A program made the translations under genes and the position numbers. Below the pieces are notes generated by a model. That model made no database searches. It saw nothing but the letters and a program-made list of their open reading frames with translations, and was not told the DNA's origin. DNA of 7,410 nucleotides from a virus (taxonomy: Duplodnaviria; Heunggongvirae; Uroviricota; Caudoviricetes): positions 1 to 7,410 of IMG/VR virus record IMGVR_UViG_2617270946_000020; one strand, given 5' to 3'. Positions 1 through 6,861 of this stretch are shown in pieces. Every line of letters begins with the position of its first letter. The first letter of the stretch is position 1.

Positions 1-609
1 TCAGCCAGCAGGCCATCCGACAGCATAACTGCGGATCGCCTTCAGGTCTGTCAGCGCCTCAACCTCGGCTTTCATCTGCAACTGCCGTGTATTAATCTCC
101 ACTCCCTTCGCAAACATCGCCTGCTCTGTCGCATCTGCCAGCGCAATTATCTCCGCCGCCGTCACCGGCACCACATTATTATCCCCGTCGGTCCAGGCAA
201 AACCTTCCGGAAGACGGTTATTCTCTGCCATCAGGCGTGTCGTGCTTATCCTGGACAACGTCTTCTTGCCGTAATCCCAGTTCCTTCCGTTGAATTCCAT
301 CACGTATTCCATACTCTCCTGCACATCACGCCAGATATTAATCTCTTCCCGTTTCGCCGCCTTTGCCGCTTCCAGTACTGCTTCCGTGGCAACAAAGGCA
401 CTCACGCTTCCGTACGTTCCTGCTGTCAGCCCAGACCACAATGCTTTTCCGTGTTCTGTATTATCCGTTTCCGTTGCAGTATACGGCAGCCATACCTGTT
501 CCCCTTTTTCATTCACCGCGTCTTCAAACTGCACCTCACAGTTTATCCCGCCATATTCGTTGCTGGCTGCATTTCGTACTGCAAGAATCTCTTTTCCCTT
601 ATCCACCAT
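1..609 (-). CDS. Tail-fibre-associated protein of unknown function; possibly a tail fibre assembly/chaperone (Tfa-like) by position and size
   Basis: Open frame ending with a TGA stop at 1-3. A perfect AGGAGG Shine-Dalgarno (minus strand, about 611-618) lies in the 10 nt between the stf stop (TAG, 618-620) and ATG 609-607, which is followed by GTG 606-604 (spacing 2 nt to the ATG, 5 nt to the GTG). Product about 201 aa, similar in size to lambda Tfa (194 aa), but the canonical Tfa C-terminal motif is not evident. The frame stays open upstream to a stop at 724-726, so the ORF track reports 1..696 from a GTG. Confidence 0.5.
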   Translation of the reverse strand: MVDKGKEILAVRNAASNEYGGINCEVQFEDAVNEKGEQVWLPYTATETDNTEHGKALWSGLTAGTYGSVSAFVATEAVLEAAKAAKREEINIWRDVQESMEYVMEFNGRNWDYGKKTLSRISTTRLMAENNRLPEGFAWTDGDNNVVPVTAAEIIALADATEQAMFAKGVEINTRQLQMKAEVEALTDLKAIRSYAVGWPAG

Positions 610-617
610 GACCTCCT

Positions 618-2012
<1,395 letters not shown>

Positions 2013-2023
2013 ATTCACCCCAC

Positions 2024-2049
2024 AAAAAAGCCCGCCTGAACCGGCGGGC
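2024..2049 (-). terminator. Rho-independent terminator downstream of the lom-derived ORF
   Basis: Minus-strand sequence GCCCGCC-GGTTCA-GGCGGGC-TTTTTTG: a 7-bp GC stem, 6-nt loop and T6 run, lying between the stop at 2077-2079 and the stf start. Confidence 0.7.
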
Positions 2050-2076
2050 TGTCATAACACTGTGTTACCTGGCTAA

Positions 2077-2712
2077 TCAGAATTTATAACCGATACCCAC
2101 GATGAAACCGTCAGTGCGCCAGTCACCACTGCCGGAGCCTTCATAAGCAATATCAATGGCCACGGATTCGGTCGGGTTAAACTGCACGCCAGCCCCCCAC
2201 GCCAGAGACGTGTTGCTGTGGCAACCGTCATCACTTCCGGTCAGCACGTCGTGCGTTTTCCCCTTGTTGTCAGTTACGCGGAGATAATCCCCGGAGAAAG
2301 TCGACACACGGCTGTAAGCCACACCCGCCATCGCATACGCGCTGAACCATTCATTCACGCGTACAGACGGCCCCGCCATCACGCTGAACCAGCGGTTACG
2401 CACGGAATCTTCATGCCAGCGGGTATCTCTGTAGCGCGTTTTTTGCTCATCCTCAGCATTGGCATAACTGAAGGACGTAAGACGGGCATACACCGCCTCC
2501 GGTGCCGTGTCATCACCGGCAATACGTATCTGGTACCAGCCTTCGTTCATCTGACGGCGAAAGCCCGGCATCTGCATCGACAGGGCGCGAATGGCTTCCG
2601 CTGCCGTGTTCACATACAGGCTGAGGCGGCGGCCAAATCGTTGTAAATCCCCGTGAAGGCAGATGCGTGCCAGTGGCGGTGACGCCAGACAGAATGCGTT
2701 CGTCGTTGCCAT
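2077..2712 (-). CDS. Chimeric ORF: N-terminal about 78 aa of tail assembly protein I fused in frame to the C-terminal about 130 aa of a Lom/Ail-family outer-membrane beta-barrel protein (J deleted)
   Basis: N-terminus MATTNAFCLASPPLARICLHGDLQRFGRRL...EGWYQIRIAG matches lambda gpI as I recall it (MAATHTLPLASPGMARICLYGDLQRFGRR...DGWYQVRIAG). C-terminus ...SVMAGP...SAYAMAGVAYSR...AYEGSGSGDWRTDGFIVGIGYKF matches lambda Lom. There is no signal peptide, and no J-like ORF exists between K and stf. Junction estimated near 2470-2485. Confidence 0.8.
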   Translation of the reverse strand: MATTNAFCLASPPLARICLHGDLQRFGRRLSLYVNTAAEAIRALSMQMPGFRRQMNEGWYQIRIAGDDTAPEAVYARLTSFSYANAEDEQKTRYRDTRWHEDSVRNRWFSVMAGPSVRVNEWFSAYAMAGVAYSRVSTFSGDYLRVTDNKGKTHDVLTGSDDGCHSNTSLAWGAGVQFNPTESVAIDIAYEGSGSGDWRTDGFIVGIGYKF

Positions 2713-3353
2713 TTTTCGGAATACCTCTCCCGTTTACTCAGTTGTTCAGGCAGATGGTGAAGCAGCTCACCGTTGCCGCAGTAAATGGCGGCATGGTTCG
2801 GTACCGAAGCACCAAAGCAGCACAGCAGAATATCGCCCGCCTGTGCAGAGGACAGGGGCACCCGGTAAAAGCCTGTGACCGCCATATTGTCCAGGTAAAG
2901 GTTCTGACCGTTGCGCCACCAGTCATCCTCGCGATGAAAATCCGGCATTTCAGTCCCCGCCAGATGATAAGCATCCCGAAACAGCGTGTAACAGTCCGTC
3001 ACCCCGTGCTCAAAGCGCCGTCCTGTCAGATGTGGCACACAGCGGAATTTGTGAATGTCACCCCGGCAGACCAGCCACCAGGGCAGTGCGCTTTTTATCT
3101 GCAGCCGCCGGTCAGCCTCGCTCAGCCAGGGCAGCCCACCGGGATGACTGTGGACCAGTGCCACAATCTCCCCCTGCATCTCTGCCCGCAGCCAGTCTTC
3201 CGGTGCGATACGAAAATACGCCTCCGGCTCTGCAGAAATATTCACACAAGGGATATACCACTCCCCCTCCGGCGTGCTTATCACGAAGCCGCACGACTCC
3301 GCAGGCGCACACCGCCGGGCATGCGCCAGAATCGCTGATTCAGTCTGTGTCAT
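2610..3353 (-). CDS. K: Tail tip assembly protein K (JAMM/MPN metalloprotease-like plus NlpC/P60-like domains)
   Basis: Begins MTQTESAILAHARRCAPAESCGF... as I recall lambda K. Contains the JAMM motif HSHPGGLPWLSEAD (H-x-H-x7-S-x2-D) and an NlpC/P60-like Cys/His region (DCYTLFRDAYH ... NHAAIY). Start is 10 bp after the L stop. The 3' end overlaps the I-derived start by 103 nt in another frame. Confidence 0.88.
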   Translation of the reverse strand: MTQTESAILAHARRCAPAESCGFVISTPEGEWYIPCVNISAEPEAYFRIAPEDWLRAEMQGEIVALVHSHPGGLPWLSEADRRLQIKSALPWWLVCRGDIHKFRCVPHLTGRRFEHGVTDCYTLFRDAYHLAGTEMPDFHREDDWWRNGQNLYLDNMAVTGFYRVPLSSAQAGDILLCCFGASVPNHAAIYCGNGELLHHLPEQLSKRERYSEKWQRRTHSVWRHRHWHASAFTGIYNDLAAASACM

Positions 3354-3363
3354 AAACCGGGAT

Positions 3364-4062
3364 TTACTGCGAAAGTTTATTAATGGAAAGGAAACCGCCA
3401 AAATTGCCGACATTCCTGCGCAGTTCACACCCGCGCATGCACTTGCTGCATCTGTCCTTACGGATATCCGTGGTGGGTTTATCGAACTCATCCGCCACAG
3501 CCCCGCCCGTGTAACCACACTCATCAGAGCGGTAGGTCCACATACAGGTGTTCGCCAGCATGATACGACCGGGAAACAGCGCCCCGTCCGTCTCGGTCGG
3601 TGTGGCCAGCACAAACGAGGCCGTCATGGCTGTCAGCTGCGACATCTGCTCCACCACCCAGCGGTCACTCAACTCCTGCTCCGGGTCCGCCGCCGGATTG
3701 CCCGCAACGAAATTCACCGCATCCAGAAAACGGGCATACACCCGGCGGCGGACCACCGTGGCCCCCACCAGACTCTGCAGGTCTTCCGCCATCCCGGTGA
3801 CCAGACCGAACAGATTGGACACCGTCAGCGACGGTCTGGCACTGCTGCCCTTCCCGCTCATCTCAAAGCCGCTGCCATCAATCGGGTACGCCTGGTACTT
3901 CCGCCCCTGCCAGGTGACCGGCTCCCCTTTTTCATTCAGCTCATTACAGAAAAAATACCGCTCACCACCCTGCACCGTCAGGTCAATTTCCCAGAGTACC
4001 ACCCGCGGTGACTGCTCTGATTTAACCGACTCGCTCAGACTTTCTTCGTGAATATCCTGCAT
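3364..4062 (-). CDS. L: Minor tail protein L (tail tip complex)
   Basis: 232 aa, the same length as lambda L. MQDIHEESL...VVLWEIDLT...GERYFFCNE...GEPVTWQG...FGGFLSINKLSQ matches lambda gpL end to end; the C-terminal cysteine cluster is retained. Confidence 0.9.
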   Translation of the reverse strand: MQDIHEESLSESVKSEQSPRVVLWEIDLTVQGGERYFFCNELNEKGEPVTWQGRKYQAYPIDGSGFEMSGKGSSARPSLTVSNLFGLVTGMAEDLQSLVGATVVRRRVYARFLDAVNFVAGNPAADPEQELSDRWVVEQMSQLTAMTASFVLATPTETDGALFPGRIMLANTCMWTYRSDECGYTGGAVADEFDKPTTDIRKDRCSKCMRGCELRRNVGNFGGFLSINKLSQ

Positions 4063-4095
4063 CAGTTCACCACCTGCTTAAACTCCGCGCTGAAC

Positions 4096-5788
<1,693 letters not shown>

Positions 5789-5964
5789 GAAACAGTCTCA
5801 CAATAAATACAGGGGCCGACATGAAAGTGCCCGAAAATGACTTTTTTAGGCGTTTTCATGTCGGACCTTTTACGGATTCGATATTAGAAAAAACAAATAG
5901 TTATGTTCGAGAAGTACCGACATGATTTTCCCCGGAAAATTTTCATAAATAGCGAAAACCCGCG
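5789..5964 (-). promoter_or_regulatory. cosB-like terminase binding region between cosN and the Nu1 start
   Basis: Read on the minus strand it begins CGCGGGTTTTCGCTATTTATGAAAATTTTCCGG, matching the lambda left end immediately after the cohesive end. It carries three copies of a CGACATGA-type motif, two direct and one inverted (plus-strand about 5816-5824, 5856-5864, 5917-5925). The cosN-to-Nu1-start distance (about 177 bp) is as in lambda. Confidence 0.7.
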
Positions 5965-5976
5965 AGGTCGCCGCCC
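5965..5976 (-). other. cosN cohesive-end site (12-nt GGGCGGCGACCT on the minus strand)
   Basis: Plus-strand aggtcgccgccc is the exact reverse complement of the lambda 12-nt cohesive end GGGCGGCGACCT. The flank on the other side (minus strand ...GTGGGTCCTTTCCGGCGATCCGGGCCGTTACG) resembles the lambda right end (...CGGGTCCTTTCCGGTGATCCGACAGGTTACG). Confidence 0.85.
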
Positions 5977-6182: not shown

Positions 6183-6383
6183 ATGTCATCAAAGAACAGA
6201 ACCCGCAGAACAACAACCCGCAACATCCGATTTCCAAACCAGATGATTGAACAAATTAACATCGCTCTTGATCTGAAAGGTTCAGGAAACTTTTCAGCGT
6301 GGGTTATTGAAGCCTGCAGGAGAAGGCTGGCAACAGATGCAACGCATCTGCGCCCGGCCAGCATGAAAAATAACGAGAAATGA
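6183..6383 (+). CDS. Small basic protein, YlcI-like (DUF3950-type) by recollection; possible DNA-binding protein
   Basis: The 66-aa ORF MSSKNRTRRTTTRNIRFPNQMIEQINIALDLKGSGNFSAWVIEACRRRL... has an Arg/Thr-rich N-terminus and a motif I recall from small YlcI-family proteins found next to Nu1 homologues (nohD) in E. coli cryptic prophages. It is transcribed opposite to the late operon. Confidence 0.6.
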   Translation: MSSKNRTRRTTTRNIRFPNQMIEQINIALDLKGSGNFSAWVIEACRRRLATDATHLRPASMKNNEK

Positions 6384-6514: not shown

Positions 6515-6847
6515 TCAGGGTGCAGAAGGACTAAAGATAAACGTTTTCTTCACGCCTTTACACGGCCTGTCCTTCTCAAATCGCCATTTTGCCATCGCCT
6601 TTACAACCTGCTCATCAAACAAATGGTGCGGCTCTGAACGGATAAACTCAATTCGGGTGACAGTACCATCAGCACCAATATCAAACTTCACATCAACCCG
6701 TCCCTTTATATAATTTGCCGCTGCATAGGCCGGATATTGTGGTAATGCCTTAACCAACTGTCGGGGCATATCTGTTTTATGTTGCGTACAGCCCATAACC
6801 AGAGAAGACAACAAAATAATTAACGGAAGGTTTCTTTTCATTTTCAT
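6515..6847 (-). CDS. Lipoprotein with TonB C-terminal-like domain
   Basis: Signal peptide with lipobox (MKMKRNLPLIILLSSLVMG-C, Thr at +2) followed by PQYPAYAAANYIKGRVDVKFDIGADGTVTRIEFIRSEPHHLFDEQVVKAMAKWRFE, which aligns with the E. coli TonB C-terminal domain as I recall it ([56 protein letters not shown]). The start could be ATG 6847 or ATG 6841; the ORF track starts at GTG 6856. Confidence 0.7.
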   Translation of the reverse strand: MKMKRNLPLIILLSSLVMGCTQHKTDMPRQLVKALPQYPAYAAANYIKGRVDVKFDIGADGTVTRIEFIRSEPHHLFDEQVVKAMAKWRFEKDRPCKGVKKTFIFSPSAP

Positions 6848-6861
6848 TCCCGGCACAGATA

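Follow-up and report, generated by a model that had tools for sequence, protein, structure and literature searches.

The chimeric open reading frame (ORF) that joins the start of the lambdoid tail gene I to the end of lom (I'-'lom) is an ordinary, recent product of prophage decay and one member of a well-known class. It lies in a window of 7,410 nucleotides, the whole stretch of DNA that was analyzed, made up of a minus-strand lambdoid late region that has undergone extensive deletion, with four junctions (J1 to J4) relative to the intact module of Escherichia coli SF-088. Alignment to intact relatives resolved the ORF into gpI residues 1-78 followed, in frame, by Lom residues 67-199. Very probably, a microhomology deletion in a decaying prophage left this ORF behind as a by-product, its product neither exported nor folded into a barrel and devoid of gpI function. 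As such, the chimera is almost certainly a non-functional scar.

Junction J1 and the surrounding late region

Breakpoints were defined by base-level alignment with two prophages carrying an intact K-I-J-lom-stf-tfa region, from E. coli S1-CAM-01-A (L001) and E. coli SF-088 (L015). At J1, the lom side matched up to position 2480 and the gpI side from position 2479, the two shared bases being TT on the coding strand, and no filler bases were present. On the coding strand the join reads ...GCC CGT CTT/ACG TCC TTC.... Compared with each of the two intact relatives, exactly 4,529 bp was absent, so that I has kept only its 5' third and lom only its 3' two-thirds, with J and the J-lom spacer gone entirely; the lambda equivalent is 15007-19183 (4,177 bp). 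The size of about 3.5 kb given in an earlier note made from the sequence alone corresponds roughly to J alone and is replaced by these values. Its description of an in-frame I'-'lom fusion, for which no strand had been given (it is the minus strand), was borne out by Pfam and the alignments, and its estimate of a breakpoint near 2470-2485 agrees with the junction found. Likewise, complete loss of J by the same deletion was upheld by colinear mapping of the whole window, in which no J sequence was detected, and comparison with intact lom-bearing E. coli prophages supported a single internal deletion.

The gpI-type neighborhood of the fusion was kept on the side of K, while the J neighbor was absent. 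The K stop at 2610 and the I start codon (ATG) at 2712 give the same overlap as lambda K (14276-14875) and I (14773-15444), and the whole lom-stf spacer was nearly identical to that of lambda, terminator hairpin included; the native K/I overlap and the lom terminator had both been listed as preserved. A promoter scan upstream of the fusion returned nothing above chance, and a simple scan upstream of lom in an intact relative returned no consensus promoter. In intact relatives, a terminator-like hairpin follows directly after J and before lom (L015 25273-25292), implying that lom is normally insulated from transcription of J. This hairpin was lost with the J1 deletion. On this evidence, what lom has lost on its upstream side is the J-lom spacer with its hairpin. 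A plausible Shine-Dalgarno sequence was read before the ATG of the intact fusion ORF, making translation possible whenever the late operon is transcribed.

Coordinates of all features are listed in Table 1. Deletion at J2 removed the end of FII, Z, U, V, G, T, H and the start of M, and deletion at J3 removed the rest of B, C, D, E, FI and the start of FII. The four window deletions sum to ~16.1 kb out of the 19.8-kb Nu1-to-lom morphogenesis module, W, L, K, stf, tfa and the cosN 12-mer being kept. The retained cosN could in principle still serve as a cleavage site for a helper lambdoid terminase.

Table 1. Features of the window and of one additional junction in a sister locus (positions refer to the window unless a locus is named)
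Feature	Position	Strand	Remarks
tfa	1-696		
stf, side tail fibre	618..2018	minus	collagen-like repeats; downstream of terminator
Intrinsic terminator after lom	2029..2050	minus (2050-2029)	8-bp stem, 7 G-C pairs, then T-run
Chimeric I'-'lom ORF	2077..2712	minus (2712→2077)	211 codons + stop
lom-derived part	2077..2478	minus	Lom residues 67-199 + stop; most of β3 + β4-β8, ending ...GYKF; strands from intact-Lom model
gpI-derived part	2479..2712	minus	codons 1-78; cut ubiquitin-like N-terminal domain without last strand and conserved C-terminal glycine
Junction J1, I'/'lom	2479-2480		2-bp microhomology; 4,529 bp deleted; in frame; alignment versus L001 and L015
K, intact (JAB + NlpC/P60)	2610..3353	minus	overlaps fusion ORF by 103 nt
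L, intact, minor tail protein	3364..4062	minus	Pfam
3' remnant of M	4062..4223	minus	bounded by J2
Chimeric B'-'FII ORF	4096..5118	minus	portal aa 1-211 joined to FII
Junction J2, FII'/'M	4222-4223		2-bp microhomology; 5,372 bp deleted; out of frame
Junction J3, B'/'FII	4487-4492		6-bp microhomology (TACCCG); about 4.2 kb (about 4,198 bp) deleted; in frame
W, intact	5115..5321	minus	
Chimeric Nu1'-'A ORF	5318..5788	minus	
Junction J4, Nu1'/'A	5686-5687		2-bp microhomology; 1,975 bp deleted; in frame
Exact lambda-type cosN 12-mer	5965..5976	minus (5976-5965)	GGGCGGCGACCT; 177 nt upstream of truncated Nu1
Cargo genes: DUF3950 gene and PF03544 ORF	6183-6383 and 6515-6856	plus and minus, respectively	kept in all decay states
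Junction J5, W'/'B	L003 823-827		5-bp microhomology; 515 bp deleted; in frame; in L003, L005, L007, L011

Some further observations were made on the flanking genes. The repeat of stf (888-1449) consists of a 45-bp collagen-like (Gly-X-Y) tandem unit in 12.5 copies. Among otherwise near-identical sister loci, the stf product measured 404, 419, 464 or 479 aa; these steps are multiples of 15 aa, indicating that the repeat array expands and contracts rapidly. The cargo genes between cos and the lysis region are of the YlcI/YnfO type (DUF3950) and a small lipoprotein-like ORF with a TonB C-terminal domain (PF03544), respectively.

Both halves of the chimera are incomplete

Intact gpI starts with a ubiquitin-like β-grasp domain that terminates in a conserved glycine and is followed by a Gly-rich linker and a C-terminal domain, and the JAB domain of K is predicted to cleave gpI at this glycine (Iyer et al. 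2006, PMC1779556). Residues 1-78 of the fusion were identical to gpI of SF-088 at all 78 positions and to lambda gpI at 46 of 78, and aligned to residues 1-78 of the lambda tail tip assembly protein I (8iyk_I). Using Pfam, Lambda_tail_I (PF06805) was detected at aa 15-69 (E = 1.3e-10, profile positions 3-55 of 83). Like lambda gpI (PF06805; 8iyk_I, 9e7m), the fusion is colinear with gpI 1-78 and has its start codon 103 nt inside K; unlike lambda gpI, it lacks the last strand of the ubiquitin-like domain, the conserved glycine, the Gly-rich linker and the C-terminal domain. Intact relatives continue after residue 78 with ...HEQLGEGTVIHIVPRLAGAGKGG, and the gpI part of the fusion ends before ...GTVIHIVPRLAGAGKGG of intact gpI. 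In the chains of the tail-tip entry 9e7m, gpI is represented by its last ~90 aa alone (residues ~134-223), and the fusion contains no part of them.

Residues 79-211 of the fusion correspond to Lom 67-199 of the relatives and to lambda Lom 74-206. This part differed from Lom of L001 at one amino acid and was identical to Lom of SF-088 at 126 of 134 aligned residues. Ail_Lom (PF06316) was detected at aa 77-211 (E = 2.9e-81, profile positions 65-199 of 199), and residues 80-211 aligned to residues 75-206 of the lambda Lom structure 9wso_C (E = 9.7e-37). The C-terminal AYEGSGSGDWRTDGFIVGIGYKF was present, and the protein, which has a C-terminal aromatic β-signal, ends in ...VGIGYKF. Lom homology covers the last two-thirds of the family profile only, i.e. 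the eight-stranded barrel is incomplete. In an AlphaFold model of intact Lom from a close relative (P0026; moderate confidence, pLDDT 58), a signal-peptide helix (2-18) and eight strands were seen, with β1 at 32-38, β2 at 52-60 and β3 from 65. Since the fusion begins at Lom residue 67, the signal peptide, β1, β2 and the start of β3 are missing by this model. In agreement with the missing strands, alignment to OmpX started at OmpX residue 53. Against the nearest NCBIfam equivalog model the fusion scored 78.5 bits, compared with a cutoff of 258 bits, and scores for NCBIfam equivalogs were far below their cutoffs.

A signal peptide was sought at both candidate starts of the ORF, the ATG and a downstream GTG, with a heuristic based on a basic n-region and hydropathy, and none was found. 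Neither start is followed by a basic n-region, and the maximal 12-residue hydropathy was 1.33 for the 211-aa form and 0.64 for the 178-aa form that starts at the GTG, versus 2.6-2.9 for Lom and OmpX. Compared with lambda Lom (Ail/Lom/OmpX, PF06316; 9wso_C), fusion residues 79-211 are homologous to 74-206 (64 of 134 identical), and the two share the C-terminal β-signal ...GYKF and the terminator that follows; unlike lambda Lom, the fusion would not yield an exportable eight-stranded barrel, as judged from sequence and model. The earlier note, which had the Lom signal peptide and first strands replaced by gpI and the conserved Lom end retained, is supported by these data: the heuristic detected no signal peptide, the Lom match was not full length and the N-terminal 78 aa are gpI. 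It is extended here in that the gpI half is incomplete as well, and in that J1 is one of four deletions in the window and its product one of many Lom chimeras. With gpI and Lom both truncated, the two halves of the chimera are cut within their folds. Prediction of the fusion by AlphaFold from the single sequence gave a mean pLDDT of 35, was uninformative and was discarded. An alignment of the fusion with Lom homologues (A1) pushed the gpI residues onto the Lom N-terminus and was left out of structure prediction.

In databases, the exact 211-aa product is recorded as EFC4077933.1 under the label "hypothetical protein". The 178-aa form (P0003), whose GTG start at 2613 lies 33 codons downstream of the ATG, was present on 11 contigs, among them the complete chromosome CP170296.1. 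This GTG overlaps the K stop (GTGA). Names given by NCBI to the 178-aa form are "Ail/Lom family outer membrane beta-barrel protein" or "tail assembly I family protein", the first of which overstates a truncated, signal-less fusion fragment (2077-2613).

Carriers, nested decay states and related chimeras

The window matched contig JNRI01000051.1 of the short-read draft assembly GCA_000704605.1 (E. coli) with 100% identity, and J1 recurred in 12 or more E. coli assemblies that are nearly identical to one another. Of the 5,426 complete E. coli genomes in RefSeq, not one spanned the junction. A 26-mer across the junction was absent from metagenome contigs and from GTDB species-representative genomes, the latter being uninformative with one genome per species. 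Scanning IMG/VR for the junction gave four matches, all copies of the same isolate genomes. In loci reaching the chromosome, the prophage adjoins potB-potA-pepT-roxA-phoQP, the same site as in the intact L001, except for L009. In that locus, from position 5897 (also in L024), a ykgJ-like gene is followed by an integrase, a Form_Nir_trans-family transporter gene, mlaA and fadL in place of potB, and the tfa region is only 96% identical. This flank reflects either a chromosomal rearrangement via the tail-fibre region of another prophage or a mis-join in the repeat-rich stf.

J1 was present in 12 of 12 loci and J2 in all loci that extend far enough. Four of these (L003, L005, L007 and L011) carry J5 and have kept C, D, E and FI, L005 also Nu1 and A. 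In L006 and L010, J3 was present with Nu1 and A intact, and J4 had been added in the window, L008, L013 and L014. From these nested states an order follows in which J1 and J2 came first, J3 or J5 arose on separate branches and J4 came afterwards. A segment of 2,246 bp, from the M remnant to the terminator, was identical in 9 of 11 sister loci, and the differences in L014 look like assembly noise. Such near-identity indicates that the lineages are very close and the deletions recent. As a candidate, a phage satellite or helper-dependent element was rejected: every state is without intact portal or terminase, and without J. The lineage retains cos and, in some decay states, head genes.

Besides ordinary 199-aa Lom proteins, a protein search with the fusion retrieved 36 or more further E. 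coli chimeras that end in a Lom C-terminus. Their Lom breakpoints were scattered over residues 12-99, and their N-terminal partners included portal, gpA, S49 protease, Z, U, tail tube protein, L, J domains, stf and lysozyme. One of them (P0019) is an independent gpI-Lom fusion of a different allele, in which nearly full-length gpI is joined at Lom residue ~59. Another (P0059) joins portal to Lom; it was listed for 40 contigs, is indexed in 47 blocks of the assembly collection and belongs to a DLP12-like prophage located elsewhere on the chromosome. As in the I'-'lom fusion, in these chimeras (also P0103, L-Lom, and P0077, gpA-Lom) a 5' fragment from the late operon is joined in frame to the 3' part of lom, the morphogenesis genes in between having been lost; they differ from it in breakpoint, partner and prophage. 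In-frame deletion scars of the late operon that end in lom are therefore common in E. coli. The portal breakpoint of J3 (...GAC GGG TA/C ATG) was within 1 nt of that of P0059 (...GAC GGG TAT/GAG TTT; L017 6601-6640); portal codon ~211 may be a deletion hotspot, or the proximity may be a coincidence.

The cryptic lambdoid prophages DLP12, Rac and Qin of E. coli K-12 are defective and carry scattered late-gene fragments (nohD/aaaD, lomR, stfR/tfaR) after multiple deletions. Those elements are older and more degraded, whereas here intermediate states are still sampled among near-identical genomes.

Origin and meaning of the I'-'lom chimera

In the preferred explanation, a lambda-like prophage residing beside potB in one E. 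coli lineage would have undergone a single illegitimate recombination event (of the RecA-independent type) or replication slippage between two TT dinucleotides, taking out the DNA from codon 79 of I to codon 66 of lom, with the reading frame restored by chance. A deletion scar is indicated by the clean 2-bp microhomology junction, the identical missing length relative to two relatives and the other lesions in the same element. In lambda tail assembly, loss of J abolishes tail formation; with J gone, the element would lack the tail-tip initiator and receptor-binding protein and would be unable to build tails. In gpI, the cut falls within the ubiquitin-like domain, ahead of the conserved glycine, and the tail-tip C-terminal domain is removed. 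With the signal peptide and first strands of Lom lost as well, the chimera, if made at all from late-operon transcription, would be cytoplasmic, unable to form an eight-stranded barrel and presumably degraded. J1 would thus stand early in a continuing run of microhomology deletions that dismantle the morphogenesis module, and the intactness of the ORF would be due to the recent date of the event and not to selection.

Alternatively, I and lom-stf-tfa might derive from two different lambdoid prophages in one genome, joined by illegitimate recombination between them. Lambdoid prophages are mosaic, the best matches of the two sides differ (gpI side 99.4% to many genomes, lom side 98.7% to H14), and the aberrant right-hand flank of L009 indicates that rearrangements happen in the lineage. 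However, the two sides are arranged colinearly with intact prophages in both order and orientation, the missing length is the same to the base pair against two independent intact relatives, and the intact L001 occupies the same potB-side site and has the same lom-stf-tfa end. An exchange between prophages would moreover require an extra chromosomal rearrangement, of which there is no trace, and is considered improbable.

It is less likely still that the chimera was exapted for a function, e.g. with the gpI ubiquitin-like fragment acting together with K and L to poison tail assembly of superinfecting lambdoid phages, and that selection keeps the frames. In favor of such a role, the fusion ORF was intact in all 12 assemblies, and K and L had survived undamaged throughout the decay states. 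Three of the four junctions in the window and four of the five in the lineage (I'-'lom, B'-'FII, Nu1'-'A and W'-'B, but not FII'/'M) were in frame, the latter with a binomial probability of 0.045 at p = 1/3, a post hoc and weak result that could hint at selection for in-frame events. Furthermore, overexpression of full-length Lom is reported to block lambda-vir (bioRxiv 10.1101/2025.02.28.640651). Nevertheless, because the carriers are essentially identical, the integrity of the ORF is uninformative on selection and dN/dS has no power. Both domains are cut inside their folds, and a Lom-type surface function is excluded by the lack of a signal peptide (by the heuristic). The many chimeras with random partners and breakpoints make in-frame scars routine, and the fusion itself is rare, being absent from the complete genomes searched. 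We consider it similarly far-fetched that selection lies behind the in-frame excess and the intact K, L and W, with in-frame scars keeping up translation and transcription along the late operon and the chimera, together with K and L, serving as a dominant-negative decoy against tail-tip assembly of superinfecting lambdoid phages.

Finally, an artefactual J1 in a chimeric contig can practically be dismissed: although the window comes from a short-read draft assembly, the junction was found in 12 NCBI assemblies, one of them the complete chromosome CP170296.1, which stem from several projects and years and are not alike in the rest of the prophage, and assemblers do not mis-join contigs at a 2-bp overlap.

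Interpreted as a deletion scar, the chimera marks a prophage that has lost Lom and all tail-making capacity. Lom-associated phenotypes, including adhesion and the block of lambda-vir on overexpression, would be lost from the prophage as well. For annotation, the fusion is a warning that counts of Lom-type virulence or exclusion factors will take in dead fragments. As a textbook case of prophage decay it has little general import. The successive decay states, however close their genomes (about 2 SNPs in 4 kb, with three different extra deletions), form a natural set for comparing rates of deletion and point mutation and for studying the use of microhomology.
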